Counted from the stretch's first letter, positions 15,057 to 44,204 are shown. The stretch is DNA of 64,000 nt from an uncultured Alphaproteobacteria bacterium (GCA_944389515.1 CALXMQ010000003.1:44762-108761), one strand, 5' to 3'. Made by a program: numbers and translations. The notes: generated by a model from the letters alone, not told the origin.

Positions 15057-16090
15057 AATATATCGGAAATAAAACAAGATTATTAGAATTTATAAATACC
15101 TCTATGCAAAAGAGCAATGTTCCACTTAGTGGGGTGTTTATTGATATATTTGGCGGAACAGGATCTGTAGGAAAATTCTTTAAAAGCAAAGGTTATCAAA
15201 TAATATCAAATGATTTAATGCTATATTCGTACATAGCCCAATATGTAAATGTATATTTAAATAAAATGCCAACATTTTCTAAGATTTCTTCAAATGGCAT
15301 CTGTGGCGTTTTAGATATTTTAAACAATCCTGAATTAAGTTCCCGTGGATATATTTATGATAATTTTGCTCCGGGCGGCAGTTATAAACGTCAATATTTT
15401 TCGGACGCAAATGCGATGCGCATAGACGCCGTAAGAGACCAAATAGAAAAATGGTATCAACAAAAAAAATTATCTATAGATGAATATTATGTATTAGTAT
15501 ATATGCTTATAGATGCTGCGGATTTCGTAGCTAATATTTCTGGAACATATGGGGCTTACTTAAAAATATGGCGATCCATGGCGTTAAAAACATTGTGTCT
15601 AAAAATACCAAAAATAACAGATAATAAAAAAAACAATAAAATATACCAATTAAACGCCAATGATTTAATAGAAAACATTACTGGGGATATTTTATATCTG
15701 GATCCCCCATATAATCAAAGACAATATGCTCCGAATTTTCATGTATTAGAAACATTGGCAATATGGGACAAACAAAAATTATTTGGCAAAACAGGCCAGC
15801 GTGATTATAGCAATAAAAAATCTGATTATTGTCAAAAAAGCAAAGCATCAACAGCCTTAAAAGATCTAGTGCATAAAGCTAAATGTAAATATATTATACT
15901 AAGCTATAATAATGAAGGCATAATAAGTAGAGAAGAAATTATAAAAATATTATCTTCTGTTGGAATTGTTGAAGAATATATTCAACCTTATAGGCGCTTT
16001 CGAACAGAAAAAGATAATGATAATAGACATTACAAAGATTGTGATGACAAAGTTCAAGAACATTTATATATCGTAAAAATATCTGTATAA
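15053..16090 (+). CDS. D12-class (M.NlaIII/FokI-like) N6-adenine DNA methyltransferase (M2)
   Basis: MKYIGNK, DIFGGTGSVG, YLDPPYNQRQY, LSYNNEG; pattern closely follows M.NlaIII-type enzymes. Confidence 0.92.
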   Translation: MKYIGNKTRLLEFINTSMQKSNVPLSGVFIDIFGGTGSVGKFFKSKGYQIISNDLMLYSYIAQYVNVYLNKMPTFSKISSNGICGVLDILNNPELSSRGYIYDNFAPGGSYKRQYFSDANAMRIDAVRDQIEKWYQQKKLSIDEYYVLVYMLIDAADFVANISGTYGAYLKIWRSMALKTLCLKIPKITDNKKNNKIYQLNANDLIENITGDILYLDPPYNQRQYAPNFHVLETLAIWDKQKLFGKTGQRDYSNKKSDYCQKSKASTALKDLVHKAKCKYIILSYNNEGIISREEIIKILSSVGIVEEYIQPYRRFRTEKDNDNRHYKDCDDKVQEHLYIVKISV

Positions 16091-16185
16091 CTACTTTCTT
16101 TAATTATACAAAGATTATACAAAGTATTCTTACCCCACATGGGGATTTGATCGGGGGCATGACAGTTATATTAAAACTGTCCTGG

Positions 16186-16896
16186 TTATGTATTCAGGTA
16201 ATGCACAGACATATTTGGTTGACTGGCCACAGTTGTTATTTTTCCATTATCAAATATAATGGCCGCATTATTATCTATTGCCCAACCTGGGATATTATGT
16301 TTTTTCGCCAATGCGTCAAAGAATCCCTGCTCTATCTTGGTCTTGGTATTATAATGTGGCACACAAAAACCATGTATAAAACCCAAACCTGGCAACAAAT
16401 CCAGTTTATTCCAATCTATTTGTCCAGTTTCATTTTGAATATAATCTTCATTATCATAATAATCAAACCAGCATATCGCACCTGCGGACAGACCAGATAA
16501 AATCATACCGGTATCGGCATATTCTTGTAATAATTTATCAAAACCAATTTTTTGCCAGCAATCTATCATGAACCTGGTATCACCGCCACCAACATAGATG
16601 GCGTCAGTGTTGGATAAAATGTTGCGAATTTCAGATTCTGTCGGTGGATTTTCAACCAAACGCAATTCAGACACATTTGCACCCAGCGACGAAAAATGCG
16701 CCATCAAATAGTCTGTATAATTCGGCGAATCTTTGCCTGCGGTTCCCAAAAACAATATGTTTGGATTAGATTTGCCCGTCATTTCTATGATTTTTTTATT
16801 TATTGGAATATTATCCAATGGATATTGTTTTTTGGTGCCATCTGGTAAAATTTTGACACGTCCATTTTCACCACCACCAATAGCGATTATTTTCAT
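16186..16896 (-). CDS. Peptidase E / S51 family (class I glutamine amidotransferase-like)
   Basis: IGGG, LFLGTA, IYVGGGDT, GLSAGAI nucleophile, PHY. Confidence 0.85.
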   Translation of the reverse strand: MKIIAIGGGENGRVKILPDGTKKQYPLDNIPINKKIIEMTGKSNPNILFLGTAGKDSPNYTDYLMAHFSSLGANVSELRLVENPPTESEIRNILSNTDAIYVGGGDTRFMIDCWQKIGFDKLLQEYADTGMILSGLSAGAICWFDYYDNEDYIQNETGQIDWNKLDLLPGLGFIHGFCVPHYNTKTKIEQGFFDALAKKHNIPGWAIDNNAAIIFDNGKITTVASQPNMSVHYLNT

Positions 16897-22970: not shown

Positions 22971-23046
22971 TGGCTCGGGCAACTGGACTCGAACCAGTGA
23001 CATACGGATTAACAGTCCGTTGTTCTACCGACTGAACTATGCCCGA
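22971..23046 (-). tRNA. tRNA-Asn(GTT)
   Basis: TCGGGCA acceptor stem, anticodon loop CTGTTAA, TTCGAGT T-loop, G73, encoded CCA; 76 nt; terminator 22941-22965. Confidence 0.97.
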
Positions 23047-26495: not shown

Positions 26496-29400
26496 TTACA
26501 TACTGGTCAAAAATGCTAAATCAGGTGAACAAATTATCCCCAAGCCTTTATCGCTGGTATAGCGCCCTTCCCTGAAATCTATACCACGTGATTTCAGTTT
26601 TTCGCGCAACATACGCCATGTTTCTTGTTCGCCAACGCGGTTCATATCATCCAGTAAAATAACAAATGAAGCATCCAAATTATCTACGATATCCAGAATT
26701 TCTGGGCGTGAGTAATGGTCACTGCCACGTGGGCCATCAATCAGCACCAAATTAAATTTTGTTTTTCCGATGGCATCTGAAAACCCATGATACGTTCTGG
26801 ATTCGTATGGTGGGACAATTTGCACATTTACTGCATCTAATATAGTTGTATAATCAGGTGCATCAGGCATTTGCCGGGCAAAGAAATTCAACCAATCTGG
26901 ATTATTTTCACAAATCATCAATTTTGCGCCCGTGGCACGCGCATATTGTATGGTCAATTTTGACGATTGCCCCAGTCCGCATTCCAGTATGCTGGTGGGA
27001 CGCATTTCATCCAAAACACGATACAATACGTACAGCACAATATAAGACACCGCCCAACGCCCAGGCGACACACTTTTGTTATTCAGCCATGAACTGTTTG
27101 ATATCGTATCATGATAAACATGCGCCCAATATTGTTCAGAATCACGCAAAGATAATTCAGATTGATTACGTTGCACTGCGTCGCCAACCGCAGAAACAGC
27201 CGTGGTAATTTCTGAATTTAATGCAGAAATCTGGTCACCCATGCCATGGCGCATGTTATCAACCGCATCAGTCATATTTTTTGATGCAGTGGCCACGGAA
27301 ACATTGACCGCATTACCCATATCTGTAATTTTAGTATTTAGTTCATCGCGTGCATTATCCACAGATTTATGCAATTTTTTATTCAGCAAATTCGCAGAAT
27401 CTTTGACCACCGCATGAATACTGGCGATACGCCCGTCCAGTTGAACAATGCCGCCATGCAACGTTGTGTGTACAGTATCAGACACATTACGTACATTATC
27501 AGTGACATGTTTTTCCAGGCTGTGTGCGATTTTTTTGGATGATTCACGCATAACGTCCGCCATATCCAGCACACTGGCCGTACCATCAGTTACAACATTG
27601 CGGATTTCATCTGAAAATTCAGATATACGCGCCAAAATATTATTTTGCGTTTCTGAATTTGCCGCAATAATCCCAGTTTTCATACCATCCAGTTGCCGTT
27701 GCAATGTATCACAACGACGATTGATATCTGCAACCGCCCCCATAACCGCCGCATGGTTTTGATTTATCAAATCAACCATGTACCGTCGGCTTCGTGCATA
27801 CAGAACTGATTTTAAGTGGCGAAAAAAATATTTGATGTGATGCGCATTAAAACGTTTGTATAACCAAGATATAAATTTTTTTCTTTGAAATGACGGATAC
27901 ATTTTATTCACAATATCAGTCAATTCTGTTTTCTTGTATCTGTATGGTTCTGTTTCAATATCAACAACAACCTGGGCACCATTTTTAACCGGCATTTCAT
28001 ATGTAAATGGTGCACCATGCCATACAGATATTGGTTTTGATAATATTTCACGTCCATCAATACGCACAGAATTATATGTAACCCATAATGGCACGCGTTT
28101 GCCATCAATCATTTTATAAATTCCACGCAATGATAATCGTAATGTTCCATCACCATGTGATGTTATGACAATTTTTTGACGTTTTTGTGATGATTCAACG
28201 ACACTGCCGGTGCCAGATTCATTTTTGAACCAATCTGGTGTGAATACACGCGCACCAGACGCGACGACGTCCACAGTATTTGTTGATGCCCCAAAGTTTT
28301 TAATATCGACACGAAATACGTTCAAACTATTAAATATATTACGGATATTCATTTTATTCAAACGCGCCCGTCGACCCAACATAGATATCATGTAATATGG
28401 GAATAAAGCATATGTTTTTAACATGCTGTACCGTGGCAATTTATAATATTCACCAGTATCAATATTATATGCCCGTTTGGGTAATTTTAACATTTTACCC
28501 AACATCAGGTTTGTCGCGTCTGTATCCCATACCATAGCCCCCGAAGCTGGTGTAAATGTCATTTCACCAAAATATATTGTTCCATCATCTAATTGATAAA
28601 AATCAACACGGACATAATTAAAACCAGCAGATAATTGTTCCGCCAATTTTTTCATTTGCGCCAAAGACTTTGGGCGTGGTGCAACACTGGAATCAAACAT
28701 ATTATTGTTATAAAAACGTTGTTTTTTCCAATCAGGACTATAAAACGCCGTTTTAAGCCCAGTAGAGTTCCGTCCAGACAATAATTGAATATATTCAACT
28801 TTGCCGTTAAAACACCAAAATTTGTAATCATATAAATCATCTATGGTTTTATTTTCCATAAATTTTTCAATCATGATTTTTGGCTGAATTTCACGATAGT
28901 GTAATTCATATCCGTATTTGAACGCAAAATTTAGGTTCATCCAATAATCTAATTTTTTCTTTACATCTGCTAAATCTAACTTTGTTTTATCACGAACAAT
29001 TATATTCCATCCAGATCCGTGATTACATTTAATAACAAATCGTTTTGGTAATTTCGAAAAATCGATATCTTCGAATCTGTCATATACACCCAACAATGGT
29101 ATCAGATATTTATCACCAATTTTTTCGCGCACCCAATCACGCACCAACAATTTGTCTGCAAGACGTGTTTTTATCGGTGTTGAATCATATAATTTTAACC
29201 ATTGAATTTTTTCATTAAATGTTACAGGACGATATAAATTCAGATATTTATTACAACATTTATTATACCAATCTGATAATAATTGTTTATAATCCAAATC
29301 TGCCACAAAGCTTTTGTATAGTGACGTGTGTTTTGCATAATACCACCAATGTCGGGCATATACTAATTCTGGGTGATTCCATGGTTTTATAGCAGAAGTA

Positions 29401-31136
29401 TAATGAACAATCGATATGTTTTGCTTAGATTTTTCCTGTAATGCTTTATACTGGCTTAGTACATTACTGTTACCTATTGCAGATTGCCACATAAAATTCC
29501 AACCACCATCAATATATTTTACATTATCTTTGCATACCATGTTCAAAATATCTTGGTCGGGACATTTAAGTTGTGTATATTTTTCAACCAAATCAAAGCA
29601 TTTTTGTTCAAGATGTAAAGAATTCCATTTATCGACATTTATCAACAAAACGCCCGAATTAAAATAATCATCAGGATTTATACCCATTTTTTGCAAATAA
29701 TTATACATGCTCTGGCCAACATAATTATGAATCGCGGCAATGTAATTGTCACCAATTTGTTCCTGGAAAATATCGGCAACATCACGCAATATAACAATAT
29801 CACAATCTAAATATAACACACGATGCGCATTTGGAAACAAACGTGGTATCAAAATTCTGTAATACATTTCTGTGGAATAATGCGCCTTTGAATATAAGTT
29901 TATTGATTGAATATATTGATTTACATTGATAAATTTTATACTGATGTTTTCTGATTTTACCGACAATATATCATTTTTTGATTTTTGACTTAAACCACTG
30001 TGGAAAACGGCGATATTGTAAAAATAATTTTTATTTGAATTTTCAACCAAACTTTGCAGCGCAACAACCAAGTATTTAGCATAATTATCATTTGTTGCAA
30101 ATACTATGTTATATGCAAATTCTTGTTGCAGCATCTGTATATGCGATTTATCAAATAATTTGGCATATGTATCCAAATGCGAATAAAAATTATCAGGATT
30201 TTTTTGTATTTGATATTTTAATGAATCTTTAATACGATTATAAAAACCATGTTGTAATAATTGTTGGCGTTTTTGTGTCGTTAAAAATCTTTTTAATTCG
30301 TCAAACGCAATGTATATATTCAATGGATTTGATTTTGATAAATTTGCCGTAATTTGATTGCCTGTATTATATCTGTAATGTATAAATTTTTCTTTTATAA
30401 TGGATATTTTCGATGCAACAGCAACAGCCGCATAAGAAAAATAAACATCATTAGCATTTTCAATGCTTTGAAATTTCAAATTATATTTTGAAATCAATTT
30501 CGCATTAAAAATTTTATTCCAGCAATTTGGTGATGTCAGATTGAAAATTTTATCTTGTACATCATCTATATGTATAACACCTGTTTCTGGGACACATAAC
30601 CATCCCATTTCTTTTGTTACGTTATTTTTATAATCAATCATATCACCAGAAAAAATGCATACATCGGATTTATCTTTTTTTAATTTTGCATAACACTGGT
30701 CCAACATATCCAATTCAAAAAAATCGTCGGAATCCAAGAAAGACAAATATTCACCACGGGCAATGGATAAACCGGCATTGCGCGCCACGCCGGCGTGCAA
30801 ATTTTTCTGGCGCAGGACGGTTATACGTTTATCACGACGGGCGTAATCTTTCAAAATATCCAGCGAACTGTCCGTGGAACCATCGTCAACACATATTATT
30901 TCTATGTCTGGTAACGTTTGATTTACAACACTGTCCAAACATTGCGGTAAATATTTTTCAACATTATATACTGGGATTATAACAGACACACGCGGTTTAT
31001 ACGATATTTTGTTCTGTACAATGATTTCTGCGGTTGTATCTGGGTCGCCATCTGCGTTTTTGACAATTATGATATTATTTTTCGTTACCCGTTTATTCTG
31101 TGACTTCACAGTTTTTTTATTCATTTTCTTGGTCAT
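26496..31136 (-). CDS. 1546-aa multidomain glycan synthesis protein: GT2 + GT8 + TupA-like ATP-grasp + beta domain + long helical/coiled-coil + class I SAM methyltransferase-like
   Basis: VSVIIPVYNVEKYL...FLDSDD (GT2); IVFATNDNY, YLDCD, DQDILN, HYTSAIKPW (GT8); TFNEKIQWLK, DYKFWCFNG, YFGEMTFTP (ATP-grasp); ILECGLGQSS, LIDGP, LLDD (MTase). Confidence 0.85.
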   Translation of the reverse strand: MTKKMNKKTVKSQNKRVTKNNIIIVKNADGDPDTTAEIIVQNKISYKPRVSVIIPVYNVEKYLPQCLDSVVNQTLPDIEIICVDDGSTDSSLDILKDYARRDKRITVLRQKNLHAGVARNAGLSIARGEYLSFLDSDDFFELDMLDQCYAKLKKDKSDVCIFSGDMIDYKNNVTKEMGWLCVPETGVIHIDDVQDKIFNLTSPNCWNKIFNAKLISKYNLKFQSIENANDVYFSYAAVAVASKISIIKEKFIHYRYNTGNQITANLSKSNPLNIYIAFDELKRFLTTQKRQQLLQHGFYNRIKDSLKYQIQKNPDNFYSHLDTYAKLFDKSHIQMLQQEFAYNIVFATNDNYAKYLVVALQSLVENSNKNYFYNIAVFHSGLSQKSKNDILSVKSENISIKFINVNQYIQSINLYSKAHYSTEMYYRILIPRLFPNAHRVLYLDCDIVILRDVADIFQEQIGDNYIAAIHNYVGQSMYNYLQKMGINPDDYFNSGVLLINVDKWNSLHLEQKCFDLVEKYTQLKCPDQDILNMVCKDNVKYIDGGWNFMWQSAIGNSNVLSQYKALQEKSKQNISIVHYTSAIKPWNHPELVYARHWWYYAKHTSLYKSFVADLDYKQLLSDWYNKCCNKYLNLYRPVTFNEKIQWLKLYDSTPIKTRLADKLLVRDWVREKIGDKYLIPLLGVYDRFEDIDFSKLPKRFVIKCNHGSGWNIIVRDKTKLDLADVKKKLDYWMNLNFAFKYGYELHYREIQPKIMIEKFMENKTIDDLYDYKFWCFNGKVEYIQLLSGRNSTGLKTAFYSPDWKKQRFYNNNMFDSSVAPRPKSLAQMKKLAEQLSAGFNYVRVDFYQLDDGTIYFGEMTFTPASGAMVWDTDATNLMLGKMLKLPKRAYNIDTGEYYKLPRYSMLKTYALFPYYMISMLGRRARLNKMNIRNIFNSLNVFRVDIKNFGASTNTVDVVASGARVFTPDWFKNESGTGSVVESSQKRQKIVITSHGDGTLRLSLRGIYKMIDGKRVPLWVTYNSVRIDGREILSKPISVWHGAPFTYEMPVKNGAQVVVDIETEPYRYKKTELTDIVNKMYPSFQRKKFISWLYKRFNAHHIKYFFRHLKSVLYARSRRYMVDLINQNHAAVMGAVADINRRCDTLQRQLDGMKTGIIAANSETQNNILARISEFSDEIRNVVTDGTASVLDMADVMRESSKKIAHSLEKHVTDNVRNVSDTVHTTLHGGIVQLDGRIASIHAVVKDSANLLNKKLHKSVDNARDELNTKITDMGNAVNVSVATASKNMTDAVDNMRHGMGDQISALNSEITTAVSAVGDAVQRNQSELSLRDSEQYWAHVYHDTISNSSWLNNKSVSPGRWAVSYIVLYVLYRVLDEMRPTSILECGLGQSSKLTIQYARATGAKLMICENNPDWLNFFARQMPDAPDYTTILDAVNVQIVPPYESRTYHGFSDAIGKTKFNLVLIDGPRGSDHYSRPEILDIVDNLDASFVILLDDMNRVGEQETWRMLREKLKSRGIDFREGRYTSDKGLGIICSPDLAFLTSM

Positions 31137-31168
31137 GACACGTTATTCCCTTGAATATATATGCTGAA

Positions 31169-31636
31169 TTATTTTTGTTTCATCGCCCGGATTTCTGTAC
31201 GCAGGCGTTCGTATTCATCGCGTACGCGGATTGGATATTGAAATGCGTAAACAATACGTTCACCCAAACTGTTGTGTGTGATGGCGTCTGGGGTGGTGCC
31301 GGCGATACCGGATACCGCACGAACATATCGCCCTTCGCGCCAACCAGAATCTATGTAATGCATCAATGGGCATACTTTGGCGACGGCAACATCTGGATTA
31401 TCGGCCAGGTACGCATCCCCATTAAATTTAGGTGATGGATTGCGACCTTCGCGCCAACCGTATTGTACATAATGTGTAATCGGATCTGCCCCAGCGGCGG
31501 CAACATCAGGGTATTTTGATAAATACCATTTTTCATCAAATAATTTTGATTTACGAACCCGGTGATGTAATAAAATACTTTCATATTTTTTACGACCAAT
31601 CAGTCCCAAATGCCGTAATAACTTTATTAAAAACAT
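31169..31636 (-). CDS. Standalone protein made of the glycan-locus repeat WYLxxYPDV...HYxxxGWREGRNPSP
   Basis: FDEKWYLSKYPDVAAAGADPITHYVQYGWREGRNPSPKF followed by a second copy. Confidence 0.7.
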   Translation of the reverse strand: MFLIKLLRHLGLIGRKKYESILLHHRVRKSKLFDEKWYLSKYPDVAAAGADPITHYVQYGWREGRNPSPKFNGDAYLADNPDVAVAKVCPLMHYIDSGWREGRYVRAVSGIAGTTPDAITHNSLGERIVYAFQYPIRVRDEYERLRTEIRAMKQK

Positions 31637-31676
31637 GTCCTGTTCCCTTTGATTTAATCAATTTTTGGCAAACAAT

Positions 31677-31809
31677 CTGACGGAGGTTAAAAATTTCAAA
31701 ACTCAGCCTCCTGACGGAGGTCAGACTGTCTGCCTGTTTTGAACGCTATAATAGTACTAGAAATAAAATCCTAAGCAAGTCATTTTTTTTGAAATCTAAC
31801 CTCCGTCAA
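31677..31809 (-). promoter_or_regulatory. Putative invertible promoter cassette 1 (sites A, B, C with GA core; promoter TTGCTT-16-TACTAT)
   Basis: A 31677-31690 CTGACGGAGGTTAA; B 31711-31724 CTGACGGAGGTCAG; C 31796-31809 inverted (rc TTGACGGAGGTTAG). The -35 (31773-31778) and -10 (31751-31756) lie on the minus strand between B and C. Confidence 0.8.
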
Positions 31810-31850
31810 AATGAAATATTCCATTGTTTTTTCAACAAAAAATGGAATAA

Positions 31851-31880
31851 AAAAATCGCCCCCAATGGGGCGTATTTTTT
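31851..31880. terminator. Terminator after ABC flippase, insulating cassette 1
   Basis: AAAAAATCGCCCC-CAAT-GGGGCGTATTTTTT. Confidence 0.75.
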
Positions 31881-31881
31881 A

Positions 31882-33846
31882 TTATGCGGCACTGGGGGCG
31901 TTGGGCGATGGCGGTGTCGCAGCATTTTGTGGTGCGGCCGGTGCCATAGGCGCGACCCCAGGCTGGGGCGCCGGTGTGGGCGCAATCGCCGGTTTTGGTG
32001 TTGGCTGAGCCGCCGGTTGTTGGGTTGGTTTTGCACCTGTATCTGTGCGACATTTGAACTGCATATCATACAATGTTTTGTATGCGCCGCATTCGTTTTG
32101 CATCAGTTCTTCGTGGGTGCCGGCTTCGACTATTTCGCCCTGGTTTACAACAACAATCTTGGACGCATTACGAATTGTTGACAATCTGTGCGCGATTACA
32201 AACACTGTTTTATCTTGCATCAGGTTTTCAATCGCACGTTGAACAACGGCCTCGGACTTATTATCCAGGGCGGATGTCGCTTCGTCCAGAATTAAAATCG
32301 GCGCGTTTTTCAAAAATGCACGCGCAATGGCAACACGCTGTTTCTGGCCACCAGACAACAATATGCCGCGTTCGCCGATTTGTGTGTCCAATCCATTTTT
32401 CAGACTGTGTATAAAATCATCTAAACATGCCATTTTTACCGCAGTTTGCAATTCTTCTTCGGTGGCATGTTCATTGCCCAGCATGATATTGTCGCGAATT
32501 GTACCAGCAAACAAGAAATTATCTTGGAACACAACGCCGATATTATTACGCAATGATTTTAATGTATAATCGCGGATATCTGTACCATCAACCAATATTG
32601 CCCCAGATGTCGGATCATAAAATCGTGGTAACAAACTGACCAATGTTGTCTTGCCCCCACCAGAATTACCAACCAATGCGATAATTTGCCCCTGGGACAC
32701 AGTTAAATTGATGTTCTTTAAGATTGGTACCCCTTTGTTATATTCAAATGACAGGTTCTTGAATTCTATGACCCGATGCGTCGCAGGCATTTCCCGTGCA
32801 TTTGGACGATCGGCAATCGCAGGTGCCTTGTCCATAATATCAAATACACGTTCAATCGCCATAAATGACATCAATACAGAGTTATAATTTGACCCCAGGC
32901 TTTTCATCGGGTTATACAACATTATCAATGCCGTTAAAAAGGACACAAATCCACCACTGGTGATATAATTATTCAATACCAGGTATGAACCAAACCATAT
33001 CGCCGCACCAATACCAATCGATAAAATTATATGCATAACAGGGGTCAACCAACGGGTCTTTTGCACCATTTTCATTTGCAATTTGAAAACGCCGTCCAGA
33101 ATCGTTTTGAATTTGTTTTGTTGATATTCGCCCAGGTTATACGATGTAATTGTCTTGTTCCCAGAATATGTTTCATTATATGCGGTCATCATGGTCGAAC
33201 TGGCCATAATATTGCTGTCGAATACAGATTGCAGTTTCTTTTTCAATGTCGTCATCGGCAAAAATGCCACAAATAAAATCGTGACGCAAACCGCCGCCAG
33301 TTGCCATGAATTATAAAACAAAACAAATATCAATGATATCGCAGTAAATAATTTCTGAACAAAGTTTTTTAAGTTTGTCAGCAATCCAGCGCACGCCATA
33401 TCTGCGTTATTGTTAAACATCATCAAAATATCGCCAGAATTTCTGCGGTTAAAGAAATTTGTATCAAAACTGAGCATTTTTTTATACAAATCTAGCTTTA
33501 ACAAATTTGTAATTTTTGCCCCAACCCACGTATTCAGATAATTTGCCGCGTATGTCAATGCACCCTGTAATGACGTAAATAAAACAATAACCAATGGAAT
33601 ATACCATGCCGCCTGTAATGATTTATCAATCATCACCAAATCCATATATGGTTTCAGCGACATGGCGATAACACCTTCGAGTGCCCCAATCGGCATCGCC
33701 AATAATATAGATAATAAACCCTGGAACCAGTATGGTTTTACATACGGCCACATACGTTTATAATTTTTAACTATTGCAGTACGCGCCAGTTTATGGGTGC
33801 TGGCTTTCTGTTTATCATCTTGCTTCATCTTTTTTATCCGCATCAT
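31882..33846 (-). CDS. MsbA/PglK-type lipid-linked glycan flippase ABC exporter with Pro/Ala/Gln tail
   Basis: TM domain, GNSGGGKTT, LSGGQKQR, ILDEATSALD; located inside the glycan operon. Confidence 0.88.
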   Translation of the reverse strand: MMRIKKMKQDDKQKASTHKLARTAIVKNYKRMWPYVKPYWFQGLLSILLAMPIGALEGVIAMSLKPYMDLVMIDKSLQAAWYIPLVIVLFTSLQGALTYAANYLNTWVGAKITNLLKLDLYKKMLSFDTNFFNRRNSGDILMMFNNNADMACAGLLTNLKNFVQKLFTAISLIFVLFYNSWQLAAVCVTILFVAFLPMTTLKKKLQSVFDSNIMASSTMMTAYNETYSGNKTITSYNLGEYQQNKFKTILDGVFKLQMKMVQKTRWLTPVMHIILSIGIGAAIWFGSYLVLNNYITSGGFVSFLTALIMLYNPMKSLGSNYNSVLMSFMAIERVFDIMDKAPAIADRPNAREMPATHRVIEFKNLSFEYNKGVPILKNINLTVSQGQIIALVGNSGGGKTTLVSLLPRFYDPTSGAILVDGTDIRDYTLKSLRNNIGVVFQDNFLFAGTIRDNIMLGNEHATEEELQTAVKMACLDDFIHSLKNGLDTQIGERGILLSGGQKQRVAIARAFLKNAPILILDEATSALDNKSEAVVQRAIENLMQDKTVFVIAHRLSTIRNASKIVVVNQGEIVEAGTHEELMQNECGAYKTLYDMQFKCRTDTGAKPTQQPAAQPTPKPAIAPTPAPQPGVAPMAPAAPQNAATPPSPNAPSAA

Positions 33847-33847
33847 T

Positions 33848-34525
33848 TTACATCAATTCATCATTTGTTGATATGTCTGTGTCGTATGTTTGGGGCATGC
33901 CACCATCCATTAAATTCTGTTTAATCCATATACCTATTTTGCGTTTTGTCTGGGCGCCTAAAACACGTTCAACTGTTATTTCGCGTACTGCCATAAATAT
34001 TTTTCTGGAATCTTTTGGTGGTGTATATGGCTGGGTTGCCAGAAATTGCAAAGACAACGTATCGTCTGACATTACCGATGCCGGAATATTGGCCACAAAA
34101 GGCCCGTCATATCCGACACGCCATACAGCAACCTGGATCCCGTTGGCCAAAACAGTTACCTGTTGATACGTGGCGGTATTCGGGTTAAACACCCCAAACG
34201 CATCAACCGTTACACGTAAATCTGTGCCGGCACCATTTGGAATATACAGGTTCAGCACCGATTCCATATTTAATGCACATCTGTGTTCTGGTTCTTGGCC
34301 GCCCCAACCGTCAGATGTTTTAATATATTCCGCACTGTTGCCATCACGTGCAAAAGATATCGGCGTACCTAAAATATATGGTCGAAATTTGTTCTTGTCA
34401 ACAGTTGTGGTGGCAATATCCGACATCATGGCGTTATTATATTGATGACGATATATCATAAATCCCCCACCAACAACCAATGCCACAGCGACAATCACAA
34501 TTAAAAATATCTTCCATTTTTTCAT
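33848..34525 (-). CDS. Membrane-anchored hypothetical protein (beta-sandwich-like)
   Basis: N-terminal TM anchor; GWGGQEPEHRC...VTVLANG pattern seen in glycan-locus accessory domains; coupled to neighbours. Confidence 0.55.
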   Translation of the reverse strand: MKKWKIFLIVIVAVALVVGGGFMIYRHQYNNAMMSDIATTTVDKNKFRPYILGTPISFARDGNSAEYIKTSDGWGGQEPEHRCALNMESVLNLYIPNGAGTDLRVTVDAFGVFNPNTATYQQVTVLANGIQVAVWRVGYDGPFVANIPASVMSDDTLSLQFLATQPYTPPKDSRKIFMAVREITVERVLGAQTKRKIGIWIKQNLMDGGMPQTYDTDISTNDELM

Positions 34526-37500
34526 GATTTTACCTGTTGTTGTTTTTTAGTTTTATTTCGCATATATTTGCATGCAAATAAATAATACGGAAATAACAAA
34601 TATGCCAGTAAAATATTTCCAAGACGTTCACGGCGTACTTCATAAAACACTTCTGGATATCGGGTCAAAACATTTTGTAATTGTTCATCGTTGTAACATT
34701 TTTCCACAGTATTTGTTTTCCACAGGCATTGGCCATCTTGACTGCCGGGGACAAAATTCAATGCAGAAAAACTGTTATTGATAATGTGTATCTTGGTGTG
34801 ATTTTTTACCGCCATTGCCCAAATCCATATATCATCAGCCATTGGGCACAATTCTAAAAATTCAGATTCATTTAATATATTTTTATCCAGACAATGTGGC
34901 GGATACAATACGCCACCAACACCAGTTAGAAAATTATTATACACCGCAGATTCATTTTTGAACGACATTTTCCATGCGTTATACGGTGCGATTTTTCCTT
35001 TATTAAACACAATTCTGTGTGCACGATGACAATGGATAATATTTGGACATTCTGAATATGCGTCCAGCAACAGTTTTAACCAATTTTCTGTATATAAAAT
35101 ATCATCGTCTGCGGTTACCAAAATCGCATCAGGGAATTCGCGCAATGCAGGAATAATCTTTTGAAAACTGCGTAAAGTTTTATCAATCCAATGAATTTCA
35201 AATGTATCATCCAACAAATCTGTCAAGTTACGTGGCAACGAAGGTCGTTTTTTTGGAAATTCTGCCCTGGACAGATATAAAATTATTTTGTCTGGTTTAA
35301 CAGATTGATTTTTCAATGTCTGGATTGTTTGATATACAGAATCGATACGCGCCGGATATGAAGTCACAGATACAACCACAGGATTAGTAATTTTGCATAA
35401 ACGTTCGCCCTTTAACCGCGCGACATCATAATATTCTTTGACATATGTTGGGCGCAATGATTTATGCATACCAGTAAAACGATTTTCATATTTGCCATAC
35501 TTTTCGTAATGCAGCAACGGATTTACCCCAGCACGCGCAACATCTGGGTTATTATATAAATATAATCCAGTATCAAATTTTGGTGACGGATTATATCCAA
35601 CACGCCAACCGGTATCTAGATAATGTTGCGCAGGATTTATATCCATTTGTGCTACATCCGGATACATACGCAAATACCAGCGCCGATTAAAATATCTGGA
35701 ATGCTTGATATATTCTAAATTTGATGAATAATTTTTCTTGTGTTTGAATAATTTTATAAACAGCTGGTTGGCGCGTACATTGGCGTGTTTACGCCATGTG
35801 GTAAAATTATGAATTTTTGCGATTTTCAATCCATGCCCAGCCACCAACAAACCAAATACAGTTTCTAAACTGTGGGCAACGGTACCAACACTGCCGGTTT
35901 TAGAATCTGCACTAAAATCAGATTCTTTGAACGGATATTGTTGAAATGGCAGCAATAAATCTGAACGCACCGCAAACATTGTTCCACATACAAATGGGCA
36001 AGTTGCAAAATATTTTACCCCCATTTTCTGGCATAATTGTTCCGTATTTTTCGCCTGAGACGTTTTTTCTGTATCACCAATTAAATTACCACTGCCGACC
36101 ATGCCGACGCCTTTGCGTTTAATCAAGCGTGACAAACGTTCAAATTGATGACGCGACCCAATCAATGGATTTATTAAATCGTCATGCCATTGCCAACCAT
36201 TGTATATAATCCCGTTTTTTATCCATGGTGTTGCCCTGGCATTTTTAGTATGCATTTTCAGCACAAATATGTAATCAGCCAAAGACACTTGTTGCAGAAC
36301 CAACCAAAACGGATATATGTCATAACCGCGATTTGGCACATGCAGAATATGAACATCTGGTTTGAACTGTTTCAGTTTATATTCTGTGGATGCGACATGT
36401 TCTGTTACCGTAACATATAAATCATAATCACGGGTTATATTTTTTAATCGATGTAAAAACCAATCCAACTGGTCATGATAAAATAAATGCAAATGAACCA
36501 AGATTTTATTTATTTTATACTCTGTTACTGACGGCTTATAATTATGAAAGACCAATTTGAATTCAGGATGAAAACGCAGGCTGATTTTATCAACAGGATA
36601 ATGACGTATTCCATTTTTCCATAATAAATAATTAAAGCTTAGTTGATCACGTCGTGAATAATTTTTAATAAAATCCCACCATTGTTCACATAATTTTTTT
36701 ATTTTTGCATCATTATGACGTCGTAATAAAACATTTGTTTCGTACAACCCATTATGTTCAGGATATTTATCTGCACGCAATATTTGCATTTGTGTATTTA
36801 TCAAATCAGGATTATCTTTGCCATCAGCGATACATGCCGCAGCTTCATCATAAATACAATCGCGATGTGGATGCAATGATATTGCAATTTTATGATTTGC
36901 ACGAATATGCTTGTTTATCAATTTATATATCGCAGGTCCACTGATTTGAATATTACTGTCCATCCAAACAGAATATTTGTATTCCGGGAATAAAATGTGG
37001 GGATGTGTTTTATGCCATCTGGCATTACGAACATTATCTGCCTTAGAAAACGCCAAAGGTTTAATTTGCCACCATAAAAAACGCTTCTTTTTTAATAACT
37101 TTGCATTATCTGTAAATAAAACATAATCAAAATGTGCATCAGGATAAAAATCAGTTATAATTTCATCATATCCACCAGATATACAAGAATAAATCACACA
37201 ATTTATATTTTTTATTGCATCGTGTTTTGCCCAATATTGTATCGATACATTTTCATCAATATATGAACCCGTGGTATAATTATGTTTATGACCGAATTGT
37301 TCATAATGCAATAATGGGTTTATGTGACAATCTTGATAACGTTTCAAATACCCATTTGTATCAAATTTAGGGCTGGGGTTGCGGCCTTCGCGCCAACCAT
37401 ATTGCATATAATGACGCACAGGATTTATCCCGGCGCGTTTAACGTCGGGATACATATTCAAATACCATTTTTTATCAAAATACTTTGATTTTGATATCGT

Positions 37501-37533
37501 TTTATAATCTTTGTCGCGATGCGATATCGTCAT
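34522..37533 (-). CDS. 1003-aa multidomain glycosyltransferase: repeat + DUF616-like + RgpF-like + repeat + GT-A domain
   Basis: VIYSCISGGYD, WMDSNI, SRRDQLSF (DUF616); VHLHLFY, NRGYDIYPF, KMHTK (RgpF); VSVTSYPARI, TADDDILY, TGVGGVLYPP, ADDIW (GT-A). Confidence 0.82.
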   Translation of the reverse strand: MTISHRDKDYKTISKSKYFDKKWYLNMYPDVKRAGINPVRHYMQYGWREGRNPSPKFDTNGYLKRYQDCHINPLLHYEQFGHKHNYTTGSYIDENVSIQYWAKHDAIKNINCVIYSCISGGYDEIITDFYPDAHFDYVLFTDNAKLLKKKRFLWWQIKPLAFSKADNVRNARWHKTHPHILFPEYKYSVWMDSNIQISGPAIYKLINKHIRANHKIAISLHPHRDCIYDEAAACIADGKDNPDLINTQMQILRADKYPEHNGLYETNVLLRRHNDAKIKKLCEQWWDFIKNYSRRDQLSFNYLLWKNGIRHYPVDKISLRFHPEFKLVFHNYKPSVTEYKINKILVHLHLFYHDQLDWFLHRLKNITRDYDLYVTVTEHVASTEYKLKQFKPDVHILHVPNRGYDIYPFWLVLQQVSLADYIFVLKMHTKNARATPWIKNGIIYNGWQWHDDLINPLIGSRHQFERLSRLIKRKGVGMVGSGNLIGDTEKTSQAKNTEQLCQKMGVKYFATCPFVCGTMFAVRSDLLLPFQQYPFKESDFSADSKTGSVGTVAHSLETVFGLLVAGHGLKIAKIHNFTTWRKHANVRANQLFIKLFKHKKNYSSNLEYIKHSRYFNRRWYLRMYPDVAQMDINPAQHYLDTGWRVGYNPSPKFDTGLYLYNNPDVARAGVNPLLHYEKYGKYENRFTGMHKSLRPTYVKEYYDVARLKGERLCKITNPVVVSVTSYPARIDSVYQTIQTLKNQSVKPDKIILYLSRAEFPKKRPSLPRNLTDLLDDTFEIHWIDKTLRSFQKIIPALREFPDAILVTADDDILYTENWLKLLLDAYSECPNIIHCHRAHRIVFNKGKIAPYNAWKMSFKNESAVYNNFLTGVGGVLYPPHCLDKNILNESEFLELCPMADDIWIWAMAVKNHTKIHIINNSFSALNFVPGSQDGQCLWKTNTVEKCYNDEQLQNVLTRYPEVFYEVRRERLGNILLAYLLFPYYLFACKYMRNKTKKQQQVKS

Positions 37534-37563
37534 TATTTTCCCTTTGATTTACACAAGTGATAC

Positions 37564-37591
37564 AGTATAAAATATATCACCGTAAAATCAA
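37564..37591 (-). promoter_or_regulatory. Fixed sigma70 promoter TTGATT-16-TATACT for the middle glycan operon
   Basis: Hexamers on the minus strand 30 bp upstream of the ATG at 37533. Confidence 0.65.
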
Positions 37592-37605
37592 GTAATTTTA
37601 ACCAC

Positions 37606-37634
37606 AAAACCGGGCAAAAAGCCCGGTTTTTTTT
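37606..37634 (-). terminator. Terminator after tail-fibre gene pair
   Basis: AAAACCGGGC-AAAAA-GCCCGGTTTTTTTT. Confidence 0.75.
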
Positions 37635-37635
37635 A

Positions 37636-37932
37636 TTACTGCTTTGGAAATTGTTGCTTTATCGCCGTTATCGTATCAGACCATGTATTGGTACCATTTA
37701 TTTTATCCCAATATATCATGTCTAACTGGTCCGATATTGGTGGGTACATCGCGACCCGTTGTTCTGTATATGTCATGCTGGGCGCATGGGGTGCGTGACC
37801 CGATACGTACGCAACGCCATTTACGATTTCTATATCTGGTATTTCAACGTCAAATCCAAATTGTTTGGCTATTTTTGGGTTATCGGTGTATGATCCCAAC
37901 TTATAATTTGTAACTTTATTTGTGTAATACAT
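37636..37932 (-). CDS. Phage tail-fibre-associated small protein
   Basis: C-terminal YxEQRxxxYPxIxDQLDMIYWD...GTxxWxxxIxAIKQQFPK motif typical of phage tail-fibre-adjacent proteins. Confidence 0.65.
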   Translation of the reverse strand: MYYTNKVTNYKLGSYTDNPKIAKQFGFDVEIPDIEIVNGVAYVSGHAPHAPSMTYTEQRVAMYPPISDQLDMIYWDKINGTNTWSDTITAIKQQFPKQ

Positions 37933-37934
37933 TG

Positions 37935-38765
37935 TTATGCCCCATGGAATATAAACAGTCTTTGATAATTTATATCTGTCAATTTTGGTACAATCACTTT
38001 GATTTCCAGACCCGCAAAAACAGGTAACAAAATTGTTTCGCGCATGCCGGTTGTCATACGACGATTATATATTGTTTTTGCATATGGGGCTTCGATACTG
38101 ACGTCCGAATTGGCCCCAGGCACAAATACCAATGTCAACAGACCGTGCGCTTCGGGTGTATATGTGTATGTGCCTGCATCTGTGCCCAAGAAATTCAAAC
38201 TGATTAAATCACCATCTATCAGTGACCATCCAATCACAGTGTTGCGACCATCGGCAGTAAAACTGGTCGCATTTTGCAATGCAGATATATCTGTTTTTGT
38301 GCCGATGTTTTCAACACCACCCAATGCGGTCAGTTGTTGACCGATGTTGTCCAGTCGTTGTATAAAAGCATCAAAATCTGGTAAATTTACAATATCTGAA
38401 TACTTGGTTGCAAAATCATCCAATGTACCGGCAAAATCTTTTAATTTTTCAATTACAAAAGAAAAATCTTGGTTTAATGCAACTGTGTCAATCGGGACTG
38501 TCGGTTGATAATCCACAATTCGTGTCAATCCGATATTGCGCGAAATTTTAATTTTTGCACCGGAAACTGGCGCTGTATCAAAAACTATTGTTCCCCCAGA
38601 ATATGGAATATCTGATGGTTCTGGACTGTCTGTGGGTGATAATTGAAACCCAGAATTTATTGTCGTACCGTTCACGTTTACCACAACATCAGATGCGGTA
38701 AAAAACGGAAATGAAAAAACAAAATCCTTGGTTTGTCCATCACCCGTGTATGTTATTGTTGTCAT
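37935..38765 (-). CDS. Short phage tail-fibre protein with T7 gp17-like N-terminal adapter domain
   Basis: TYTGDGQTKDFVFSFPFF...VVVNVNG...IVFDTAPVSGAKIKISR...VDY...ALNQDF; RBS AAAGG before ATG 38765. Confidence 0.75.
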   Translation of the reverse strand: MTTITYTGDGQTKDFVFSFPFFTASDVVVNVNGTTINSGFQLSPTDSPEPSDIPYSGGTIVFDTAPVSGAKIKISRNIGLTRIVDYQPTVPIDTVALNQDFSFVIEKLKDFAGTLDDFATKYSDIVNLPDFDAFIQRLDNIGQQLTALGGVENIGTKTDISALQNATSFTADGRNTVIGWSLIDGDLISLNFLGTDAGTYTYTPEAHGLLTLVFVPGANSDVSIEAPYAKTIYNRRMTTGMRETILLPVFAGLEIKVIVPKLTDINYQRLFIFHGA

Positions 38766-38894
38766 TTTGTTCCTTTCTTTTATCAGATAAAAAAAGTGCG
38801 CCAATCGCGCACAACAAAAAATTCGGGGATGTTTTATCCCCGAATTGTTGGATATAAGTATATCATAAAATCATAAAAAAATCAACATGAATCA

Positions 38895-39905
38895 TTATTT
38901 ATGCGTAAAAATTTTAATCAATGGTATAAAATCAAACAAATACACTTTGTAACATGTCGTTGTTATAATATCATGACGTTGCCGATAAATCGTTACCAAT
39001 GGTATTGATAAAAAAGTCAAACGATAACTTTTTTCATAACGCGGTTTTTCACTGATTGCCAACTTTAACCCAACGCGCATGGCGTTTTGATAAATTTTAT
39101 CCACCAATACCGCAGATGCATACGGATACAAATATTGTATCCCCGGTAAATTAGGCAAAGAATTCTTTTTCAAAAATGGCAAACCACTTTTTAACATTTC
39201 TAGTGGTTTATCATATACACGATGCATTTTATCGCCAACTTCGCCACTGATATACGTAGACATCCGGTACCCATGTTGCAATACGCGTTGTGATAAACCG
39301 ACTTCATATTTCAGTACAATCAACTGCTTATCAACCTGGTGTGTAATTTCGTTCATAAATTCATGTAAAAATGCAGAATTCGCAACACGACGCGATAAAC
39401 CAACAAACCAAGATTGAACCTGGACAGGTGTTGCCTGATTCGCAAAATCAATCATGCCAGTTAAATCCACACCACGTGTTTCTAAGTCAACCAGAATTCC
39501 TTCGATATCAAACAGTGGGCCATATACACTGTCATTTACCAGATAAACCCAATCATATTTATTTAATAAATTATTTTTATCTGCCCATTGATATCCACGT
39601 TTATATGAACCAAAGTCATATTCGCCATGGCGTTCGGCCTTGGCATGTAAAATGTTTGGTATTTCTTTTAACTTGTCCAATTCTGGGTCAGATACCTTGT
39701 TATCCATAAAGAATATAACATCGCCATACCCAGACAGGCATTGCAAATAATGTAACAAGGAATCGTCTATAATTCCTTGGGCATCATAGCCAGCAAATAA
39801 AAATAATCTTTTTGTGTTCATAATTTTGCCTGCTGTACCACCAGATGTTTTATATCGTTTTTGTTGCATGTGTATCCCCTGGTATTTAGTGCAAAACACG
39901 CGCAA
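38895..39905 (-). CDS. Rhamnan synthesis protein F (RgpF)-family glycosyltransferase; true start probably near 39820-39870
   Basis: LFLFAGYD..GIID, GEYDFGSYKRG, LVNDSVYGP, VQSWF, YEVGLSQ, PFLKK. Confidence 0.82.
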   Translation of the reverse strand: MRVFCTKYQGIHMQQKRYKTSGGTAGKIMNTKRLFLFAGYDAQGIIDDSLLHYLQCLSGYGDVIFFMDNKVSDPELDKLKEIPNILHAKAERHGEYDFGSYKRGYQWADKNNLLNKYDWVYLVNDSVYGPLFDIEGILVDLETRGVDLTGMIDFANQATPVQVQSWFVGLSRRVANSAFLHEFMNEITHQVDKQLIVLKYEVGLSQRVLQHGYRMSTYISGEVGDKMHRVYDKPLEMLKSGLPFLKKNSLPNLPGIQYLYPYASAVLVDKIYQNAMRVGLKLAISEKPRYEKSYRLTFLSIPLVTIYRQRHDIITTTCYKVYLFDFIPLIKIFTHK

Positions 39906-39906
39906 T

Positions 39907-40030
39907 CAAACGGTGGTTAGCCAAATAATAAACTGACGGTGGTCAGATTGTCTGCTTGTTTTGAACAACAACATGGTACTGGAAATAAAATTTATATCAA
40001 GTATTTTTCTTGAATTTTAACCACCGTTAG
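39907..40030 (-). promoter_or_regulatory. Putative invertible promoter cassette 2 (sites A', B', C' with GT core; promoter TTGATA-16-TACCAT)
   Basis: A' 39907-39920 CAAACGGTGGTTAG; B' 39933-39946 CTGACGGTGGTCAG; C' 40017-40030 inverted (rc CTAACGGTGGTTAA). The -35 is at 39995-40000 and the -10 at 39973-39978. Homologous to cassette 1. Confidence 0.8.
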
Positions 40031-40039
40031 ATTGAAAAA

Positions 40040-40636
40040 TTACCCGTTTGTGCGCAAAAAACGTGTTATAGTTGCCGCAGAAACGCGAAAGTTGCGTGCA
40101 ATATACATTTTCGTATAACCTTGGTTCAGCATTTTTATAACCGTTTCATATTTGCCATCCATTTTATGTCGTTTATTGCGACTGCCGAATGCACGCCCCA
40201 GTTTATATCCCTGGGCACGTCGCAATGCCAATGCTTCTTTGGTGCGTTGACTGATTAAATCGCGTTCTATTTCCGCAGATAATCCAAACGCAAATGCCAA
40301 AACCTTGCTTTGTATATTATCCCCCAATTCATATCCGTCTTTGACGGTATATACACGCGCCCCGATATTCATACAATGTTCCAAGATTCGCATTATCATG
40401 AACATCTTGCGCCCCAATCGCGACAGTTCGGAACATATCAATACATCGCCCGATTGTAATCTGCGCAGACATGACCCCAATGCGCGTTTGTTGGGCTCTT
40501 TGGTGCCAGACACGCCAGAATCTTGGATATATTTTTCAATTTGAATGCCCAGTGAACGCGCCTTGGCTTCTATGCCCAACTTTTGATTTTCGCAATCTTG
40601 GTGGTCAGTACTGACCCGTATATAGCCATATACCAT
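40040..40636 (-). CDS. Mpi-family serine recombinase (DNA invertase), 198 aa
   Basis: YGYIRVST catalytic Ser; SELSRLGRxxFMIMxIL..CM and DNIQSKVLAFAFGLSAEIERDLISQRTKEAL as in Bacteroides Mpi; C-terminal HTH; RBS AAGGAGG before ATG 40636. Confidence 0.9.
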   Translation of the reverse strand: MVYGYIRVSTDHQDCENQKLGIEAKARSLGIQIEKYIQDSGVSGTKEPNKRALGSCLRRLQSGDVLICSELSRLGRKMFMIMRILEHCMNIGARVYTVKDGYELGDNIQSKVLAFAFGLSAEIERDLISQRTKEALALRRAQGYKLGRAFGSRNKRHKMDGKYETVIKMLNQGYTKMYIARNFRVSAATITRFLRTNG

Positions 40637-42557: not shown

Positions 42558-42669
42558 GATACCCAGGATAAATCTTTCATCACTGATTTGCAAAGTTTAA
42601 TTATTTATTGAATTTCCGTAAATGATTATGTAAATATTCCAATTATACACATTTAGACGGAGGTGTTAT

Positions 42670-44128: not shown

Positions 44129-44204
44129 GGGGACATAGCTCAGTTGGTAGAGCAAATGACTTTTAATCATTGGGTCCAGGGTTCGAGTCCCTGTGTCCCC
44201 ACCA
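44129..44204 (+). tRNA. tRNA-Lys(TTT)
   Basis: GGGGACA/TGTCCCC acceptor stem, anticodon loop CTTTTAA, TTCGAGT, CCA; 76 nt; terminator 44209-44233. Confidence 0.97.

Follow-up and report, generated by a model that had tools for sequence, protein, structure and literature searches.

Promoter switches of the Mpi and Hin kind, in which a DNA invertase turns a promoter-bearing segment around, are already known. Small serine invertases cleave both DNA strands with a 2-nucleotide (nt) stagger at the centre of the site and are joined to the DNA through a phosphoserine link. For Mpi of Bacteroides no requirement for an enhancer or for Fis has, to our knowledge, been reported. Site sets that differ only in the central dinucleotide have been engineered for the large serine integrases Bxb1 and phiC31, with GT and GA among the dinucleotides used with Bxb1, and only matched pairs recombine. 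The inverton repeat of Bacteroides reads ARACGTTCGTN / GTTCGTTTAA (PMC8375218), and the extracellular polysaccharide promoter IVp-I of Bacteroides fragilis (Tsr19/BF2766) has more than two inverted repeats, the number of repeats between promoter and gene being inversely correlated with expression (PMC4747536). Here we describe two cassettes of recombination sites and one adjacent invertase gene in a stretch of 64 kilobases (kb) from an uncultured gut alphaproteobacterium (Candidatus Enterousia-like; CALXMQ010000003.1:44762-108761), which is referred to below as the window. We consider it likely, with a probability of roughly 0.7, that these are two phase-variation promoter switches run by an Mpi-like invertase and kept independent of each other by their different central dinucleotides (cores), GA and GT.

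The locus agrees with the Mpi systems of B. fragilis and B. intestinalis in its small serine recombinase with a C-terminal helix-turn-helix (HTH), which matches the NCBIfam Mpi model over its full length, in its short invertible segments with putative promoters upstream of surface-polysaccharide operons, several of which one enzyme probably serves, and in a half-site with AAACG beside a centre of 2 base pairs (bp) (here YWRACG-GW-GGT, and TAAACG-AA-CGTTTA in the relative L031). It departs from them in its host, an alphaproteobacterium with predicted sigma-70-type -35/-10 promoters and Shine-Dalgarno (SD) sites, in a score under the Mpi cutoff, in three sites per cassette instead of two, in an invertible segment of about 70 bp, and in cores that differ between the cassettes of one genome, whereas Bacteroides has one identical repeat at all loci. 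With Hin/hix, Gin/gix, Cin and Pin it shares imperfect inverted arms around an asymmetric 2-bp core and exchange between inverted sites; Gin is the nearest solved structure, and the sites of relatives read AAACC-NN-GGTTT, which is hix-like. However, the similarity to Hin and Gin is just about 1e-12, the segment is far shorter than their ~1-3 kb, two tandem sites lie on one side of it, and neither Fis nor an enhancer is recognisable at the locus, although no search aimed at an enhancer was made. Like IVp-I, the locus has an invertible segment, with a putative promoter, bordered by more than two repeats and hence several arrangements, but IVp-I is turned by a tyrosine recombinase whereas a serine invertase gene is found here, and graded expression is known for IVp-I only. 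The likeness to the engineered Bxb1 and phiC31 att sets lies in site sets that differ only in the central dinucleotide; those sets are man-made and belong to large serine integrases, whereas the present ones are natural and belong to a small invertase, and their orthogonality is predicted rather than measured. What looks new is the use of switch-specific crossover dinucleotides, the three sites per switch and the ~70-bp invertible segment.

The initial annotation had described six sites of arm-core-arm layout in two directly repeated cassettes about 8 kb apart, with variable arms and a core that is fixed within each cassette and different between them. All six were recovered with exactly those sequences and positions (31677-31809 for cassette 1 and 39907-40030 for cassette 2), and the core is GA three times in cassette 1 and GT three times in cassette 2. 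The two cassettes and the invertase gene are composed as follows.

31677-31690, plus strand: cassette 1 site 1, CTGACGGAGGTTAA (CTGACG-GA-GGTTAA)
31691-31710: cassette 1 spacer Y, 20 bp, flipped and relocated in state B (see below)
31711-31724, plus strand: cassette 1 site 2, CTGACGGAGGTCAG (CTGACG-GA-GGTCAG)
31725-31795, minus strand: cassette 1 invertible segment X, 71 bp, carrying the putative promoter P_B
31796-31809, minus strand: cassette 1 site 3, TTGACGGAGGTTAG (TTGACG-GA-GGTTAG)
39907-39920, plus strand: cassette 2 site 1, CAAACGGTGGTTAG (CAAACG-GT-GGTTAG)
39921-39932: cassette 2 spacer Y, 12 bp, which separates the tandem pair of sites 1 and 2
39933-39946, plus strand: cassette 2 site 2, CTGACGGTGGTCAG (CTGACG-GT-GGTCAG), its arms perfectly palindromic in the window state
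39947-40016, minus strand: cassette 2 invertible segment X, 70 bp, carrying the putative promoter P_B
40017-40030, minus strand: cassette 2 site 3, CTAACGGTGGTTAA (CTAACG-GT-GGTTAA), the sole site in opposite orientation, 10 bp from the invertase stop codon
40040-40636, minus strand: gene of the Mpi-like small serine DNA invertase, 198 amino acids (aa), with its ATG start at 40636 behind a strong SD, AAGGAGG

The cassettes are direct repeats with 77% identity over 79 nt and a spacing of 8222 bp; in each, sites 1 and 2 lie on the plus strand and site 3 on the minus strand. The degenerate 14-mer YWRACGGWGGTYAR matches the window (G+C content 39%) six times against 0.01 matches expected (0 of 100 shuffles reached six), and a pattern scan of the whole 64 kb found no match outside the two cassettes. 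The central 8 bp are identical among the sites of cassette 1 (ACGGAGGT) and among those of cassette 2 (ACGGTGGT); the second base of the central dinucleotide is the sole difference between the two octamers. The outer arm positions vary, the arms of both cassettes fit one consensus, and nothing but this dinucleotide sets the two site sets apart. Sites 1 and 3 of cassette 2 form a 17-nt inverted repeat with 94% complementarity. Sites 1 and 2 are separated centre to centre by just 26-34 bp, probably too close for mutual synapsis, so the direct repeat would not be deleted. The SD-like motif GGAGG is present in every site of cassette 1. A near-match with a GA core, TAGACGGAGGTGTT at 42654-42667 on the plus strand, is the Shine-Dalgarno of the UDP-glucose dehydrogenase gene directly before its start codon, and was rejected as a recombination site.

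Look-ups with the recombinase protein itself and with two variants of 99% identity retrieved about 30 contigs of this species, all from other metagenomes, and the cassettes on them were classed by four possible states: W, the arrangement of the window; A, inverted between sites 2 and 3; B, inverted between sites 1 and 3; and C, the remaining fourth. For cassette 2, 15 contigs have the 70-bp segment turned round (state A), while four share the orientation of the window (state W). The inner half-sites are exchanged in state A, which reads CTAACG-GT-GGTCAG and CTGACG-GT-GGTTAA instead of CTAACG-GT-GGTTAA and CTGACG-GT-GGTCAG. Cassette 2 thus shows two of the four arrangements possible with three sites, and cassette 1 shows three: state W in four sequences (the window, L002, L004 and L232), state A in L006 only, where the halves of site 3 are exchanged with those of site 2, and state B in seven (L001, L003, L005, L007, L008, L009 and L091), where site 3 has swapped halves with site 1 and where site 2 and the 20-bp spacer are also flipped and relocated. 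In a related metagenome-assembled genome (MAG), contigs L071 and L073 carry the cassette in opposite orientations. Among the same-species contigs, five that derive from different samples and assemblers break off exactly at ...CTAACGGTGGT, at the last base common to both orientations of cassette 2; contig L101 breaks off at ...TTGACGGAGGT in site 3 of cassette 1, and in one scaffold an N-gap covers exactly the segment of cassette 2. Such breaks at the sites indicate mixed orientations within samples. Both orientations of the segment occur in natural populations, as is characteristic of invertons. The proposal that the sites recombine rather than only bind protein is strongly supported by the inversion variants with swapped half-sites, the contig breaks at the sites and the recombinase gene beside cassette 2.

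Judging from the swapped polymorphisms, the crossover lies within positions 4-11 (cassette 2) or 2-11 (cassette 1) of the 14-mer, both intervals being centred on the dinucleotide. For cassette 2 the interval is the core-bearing octamer ACGGTGGT. The earlier claim that the core is the crossover is borne out to the extent that the crossover interval contains the central dinucleotide, and we infer that cleavage takes place exactly there. Comparison of the window with related loci (24 cassettes, 59 sites, 46 within-cassette site pairs) revealed no within-cassette difference at either core base (0/46 pairs), against 13/46 at position -1 and 16/46 at position +1. Apart from the conserved AAC of the arm, the other positions of the sites are free to vary across the 24 cassettes, and in L015, L071/L073 and L077 the partner sites cease to be identical immediately after the core. 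Six cores occur across cassettes (GT, GA, TT, TC, AA and AG), none of them palindromic, as expected if the core sets the polarity of the site. In L015 both sites have TT, while its sister L013 and a dozen orthologous recombinase-proximal cassettes have GT, a coordinated double change from GT to TT. The covariation of the core that the initial annotation had suggested looking for in related MAGs is found, in the lack of any mixed core among 24 cassettes, in the coordinated GT to TT change and in the different cores of two-cassette genomes. A search blind to the core recovered 11 cassettes with 27 sites, none with a mixed core. Seed-based and loose half-site pairing searches were swamped by background (equal cores in 28 of 337 pairs, near chance) and served only to pick strong candidates. 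Matches to CARGCAGACARTCTGACC in metagenome_contigs were discarded as chance, all 120 among the matches listed, judging from their flanking sequence; many are soil-type records. In three strains of the P0015 species (L104, L106 and L108), about 130 bp downstream of the invertase, the third site has lost one base at the junction of arm and core (GGACCGTTGG to GGACGTTGG), which would shift the centre of that site and may inactivate it.

Two cassettes within 10 kb of each other were found in four genomes, always with two different cores (GT/GA in the window, L023 and L026; AA/GT in L031). The cassettes of one genome are each other's closest relatives (74% identity in the window and 68% in L023, against ~45% between these lineages), and closer relatives of the window species have only a GT cassette with a single operon and one adjacent enzyme. 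In view of both observations, the second cassette arose by duplication, after which all its cores changed together, apparently in two lineages. In the closer relatives L012, L014, L015 and L016 no cassette was found upstream of the homologue of the 155-aa protein that the window encodes beside cassette 1; the region is coding there, which indicates that the second cassette is lineage-specific.

Hin fails to ligate hix sites in the inverted configuration once one base of the core has been changed (PMC4817059), so a GA site paired with a GT site should yield no recombinants. On this ground the GA/GT mismatch would block exchange and insulate the two switches from each other. Matching cores would carry the risk of inverting the 8 kb between the cassettes as much as that of deleting it. 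Cassette 1 was found in three states while cassette 2 remains in state A, and the 13 contigs that span both cassettes show no hybrid core and an intact 8-kb gene order, which is weak negative evidence only. The proposed insulation is mechanistically well founded and in keeping with the comparative pattern, and the barcode may be relevant only when cassettes lie close together.

The invertase has the catalytic domain (Pfam Resolvase PF00239, 7.7e-34) and C-terminal HTH (PF02796 HTH_7, 9.4e-06) of its family. Its N-terminal MVYGYIRVSTDHQ contains the catalytic Ser, and R7, S9, D11 and Q13 are invariant across 17 homologues. In catalytic domain, in HTH and length (about 180-200 aa is usual), and in the architecture of the sites, the system belongs to the small serine recombinases of the DNA invertase subgroup. 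Residues 1-197 align with positions 1-196 of the 203 in NCBIfam NF009949, "master DNA invertase Mpi family" (255.6 bits, E 3e-76); NCBI names some homologues of ~72% identity Mpi family, and the protein is best described as Mpi-like. The closest relatives in the PDB are Gin invertase structures (4m6f/3uj3, at 1e-12), and gamma-delta resolvase is also near. Homologues with 63-87% identity all come from MAGs of gut or rumen Alphaproteobacteria, many of them named Candidatus Enterousia. No second recombinase or invertase paralogue was found within the 64-kb window, and a single enzyme probably acts on both cassettes.

Some observations concern variants of this gene. One strain (L101:10500-10660, corresponding to about 39947-40100 of the window) has a ~152-bp deletion, not at a recombination site, that strips the invertase gene of its ~20 final codons, which encode part of the HTH, and cassette 2 of its site 3 and promoter segment, leaving a product of 192 aa; its cassette 2 looks like a locked, promoterless variant. 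The same contig still ends exactly at site 3 of cassette 1, as if cassette 1 were heterogeneous in that sample. Contigs with alphaproteobacterial-type invertases and cassettes are also filed in public bins assigned to Muribaculaceae, Bacteroides fragilis, [Ruminococcus] gnavus and Gemmiger (L019, L041, L051, L054, L071 and L073), and short contigs are likely to be mis-binned.

Segment X is predicted to carry a sigma-70-type promoter, P_B, whose orientation would set the expression of the adjacent operon. In cassette 1 its -35 TTGCTT (31778-31773) and -10 TACTAT (31756-31751) are separated by a 16-bp spacer and aimed in the window at the genes of the 155-aa and 1546-aa proteins; in cassette 2, -35 TTGATA (40000-39995) and -10 TACCAT (39978-39973), again 16 bp apart, are aimed at the RgpF operon. 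Across five cassettes from four species, the -35 (TTGCTT/TTGATA/TTGATT), the 16-bp spacing and the -10 (TACTAT/TACCAT/TATTAT/TACAAT) are conserved together with an upstream A-tract, and the promoter-like element, for which no other role is apparent, recurs in L016 and in the L102 species. The promoter faces the genes in both cassettes of the window and faces away in most other samples, so the window state would be ON for both. A candidate promoter on the plus strand (TTGAAC-N18/19-TAAAAT), seen only in the two window cassettes and with poor spacing, was dropped in favour of the conserved one on the opposite strand.

The invertible segments measure 70-71 bp, with 84-85 bp between site centres, which is well below the persistence length of DNA. 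They are smaller than the classical invertible promoters known to us. A-tracts inside the segment (A8, TTTTATTT) may supply bending. When it faces away, the promoter of cassette 2 is directed at the 3' end of the invertase gene, and the interval (39973-40040) has no terminator, whereas cassette 1 is shielded by a terminator at 31857-31872; antisense transcription that feeds back on invertase expression is a speculative consequence.

In the window state two sites are left in the leader, and the fourth state (C) would leave one. By analogy with graded switches, the third site could plausibly tune expression through the number of repeats left between promoter and gene. The leader RNA of cassette 1 in the window state (31640-31760, minus strand) folds into a long hairpin (-35 kcal/mol, z = -4.3); the cassette 2 leader folds no better than shuffled sequences (z = -0.5), and neither cassette has an Rfam match. 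The sequence GGCAGACAGTCTGAC at the segment's inner end is complementary to GTCAGATTGTTTGCC, which lies in the fixed flank on the far side of site 1; the half-sites thus reach ~13-15 bp, and the structure of the leader would differ between states.

The mechanism that we propose runs as follows. The invertase would bind sites built of arm, asymmetric 2-bp core and arm, and would bring site 3 into synapsis with either site 2 or site 1, followed by cutting at the central dinucleotide, rotation and religation. Exchange between sites 2 and 3 would invert the ~70-bp segment X alone, and exchange between sites 1 and 3 would invert X together with site 2 and spacer Y, giving up to four arrangements per cassette. 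When facing the genes, the promoter in X (-35 TTGnTn, 16 bp, -10 TAcnAT) would drive a cell-surface glycan operon, namely the RgpF/ATP-binding cassette (ABC) exporter operon for cassette 2, and the 155-aa protein with the giant glycosyltransferase for cassette 1. Religation would need complementary 2-nt overhangs, so that sites must share a core, and GA with GT would leave a mismatch. Although they are duplicates only 8 kb apart, each switch would thereby flip on its own and leave the intervening operon neither inverted nor deleted.

Several points weigh against this reading. The invertase scores below the curated NF009949 cutoff of 272 bits, and several related MAGs have two or three paralogous Mpi-like invertases on separate contigs (e.g. 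L020/L029, L023/L065 and L024/L090). A second, less conserved promoter-like match lies on the opposite strand of the segment, and state C is absent among the same-species contigs. Because most sites of relatives were picked out visually or through the identity of their repeats, the comparison is biased towards equal cores. The intact 8-kb order in the 13 contigs could equally reflect selection against rearrangement or limits of distance and topology. Furthermore, a single, fully conserved repeat is common to the capsular polysaccharide invertons at five or six Bacteroides loci, which are served by Mpi-type enzymes (PMC8375218), so that distinct cores are not required for an invertase with several targets.

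The Bacteroides repeat, identical at many loci without any barcode, also favours a view that we regard as unlikely, though as a serious competitor: recombination takes place at the core, but the GA/GT difference is a by-product of concerted evolution, and exchange over 8 kb is prevented or tolerated in some other way (synapse topology, a local accessory element or selection). A uniform core would be locked in because a change in a single site disables that site, so the conservation of GT/GA in L023 and L026 is no proof of selection for insulation; only about three independent lineages have two cassettes, and the "always different" pattern is statistically not strong. Yet cassettes that originate by duplication (74% and 68% identity) would be expected to keep the same core under neutrality, and the change took two to three coordinated substitutions and occurred in at least two lineages, with cassettes 2-8 kb apart. 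Since a one-base mismatch blocks ligation in Hin, the insulating effect would in any case exist whatever its origin. It is far less probable that the two cassettes have separate recombinases, one of them encoded beyond the window, with specificity in the arms or accessory sequences and not in the core. The two or three Mpi-like paralogues of several related MAGs would allow it, and 64 kb of this genome were inspected; against it stand the lack of a second recombinase in the window, the closely related species with one cassette and one adjacent enzyme, and the arms of the two cassettes, which are interchangeable variants of one consensus with central 8 bp that differ only in the core. We also know of no small serine recombinase that reads the central dinucleotide.

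That the 14-mers are operators or pairing elements of a leader RNA, their matching being operator or RNA covariation, we hold to be very improbable. Because site 3 can pair with either site 1 or site 2, a transcript could adopt alternative helices; the cassette 1 leader has a stable fold, and site 2 with the T-rich spacer Y resembles a weak terminator. However, physical inversion with exchange of half-sites is seen in population variants, assemblies break at the sites, and the fold of cassette 2 is unremarkable, with no Rfam family matched; operator-only and RNA-only readings are excluded by the inversion variants. Beyond two promoter switches that would be insulated by their cores, we tentatively extend the reading, at somewhat less than even odds, to a natural addressing system, in which one Mpi-like invertase would run several closely spaced multi-state switches made orthogonal by switch-specific dinucleotides. 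A duplicated copy would then escape by concerted change of its core, at least twice independently (GT to GA both in the lineage of the window and in that of L023/L026), with a further change from GT to TT in L015.

The genes flanking both cassettes all lie on the minus strand, and cassette 2 is situated between the 198-aa invertase gene and the RgpF/ABC-exporter operon. The switched genes, as assigned with Pfam, and the terminator between them are the following.

31882-39869, minus strand: operon behind cassette 2, with equal gene order in all related contigs
38895-39869, minus strand: RgpF-like protein, the first gene of the cassette 2 operon
Minus strand, further genes of this operon: 289-aa protein, 98-aa protein, 1003-aa RgpF/TOD1 glycosyltransferase (34522-37533) and 225-aa membrane protein
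31882-33846, minus strand: 654-aa ABC exporter, the last gene of the cassette 2 operon
31857-31872: bidirectional intrinsic terminator at the boundary of operon 2 and cassette 1, with 6 G-C pairs and T-runs on both strands
26496-31636, minus strand: genes behind cassette 1
31169-31636, minus strand: 155-aa protein of unknown function
26496-31136, minus strand: 1546-aa glycosyltransferase with GT2, GT8 and TupA-like ATP-grasp domains and a coiled coil

In L004, L005, L008 and L091 the RgpF/TOD1 glycosyltransferase (977 or 1003 aa) is swapped for a 1091-aa protein with GT4/GT1 and RgpF domains (~13182-16457), an allelic replacement of a glycosyltransferase of the phase-variable operon inside otherwise collinear loci. 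The 155-aa protein is made up of a ~35-aa motif present twice, YL..(Y/N)PDVA...P..HY...GW.EGR, which also occurs near the N-terminus and at residues ~590-685 of the 1003-aa glycosyltransferase and has no match to a Pfam or NCBIfam family. An Rfam scan of the window found two tRNA genes only, at 22974-23046 (minus strand) and 44129-44201 (plus strand).

The question at stake is why master invertases that flip many promoters do not recombine different loci with each other and scramble the chromosome. For closely spaced switches, this locus offers a simple and testable answer, a different 2-bp crossover sequence for each switch, and the comparison of relatives gives evidence of concerted evolution of the core inside each switch. 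The locus documents what is probably active surface-glycan phase variation in an uncultured gut alphaproteobacterial lineage with a reduced genome, and it shows an unusually small invertible segment (~70 bp) in a three-site, four-state design. The locus also supplies natural sets of sites, presumably orthogonal, for a small serine invertase. If the proposal is true, the central dinucleotide would serve natural networks of serine recombinases as an evolvable "address", by the trick already used in synthetic systems built on Bxb1 and phiC31.

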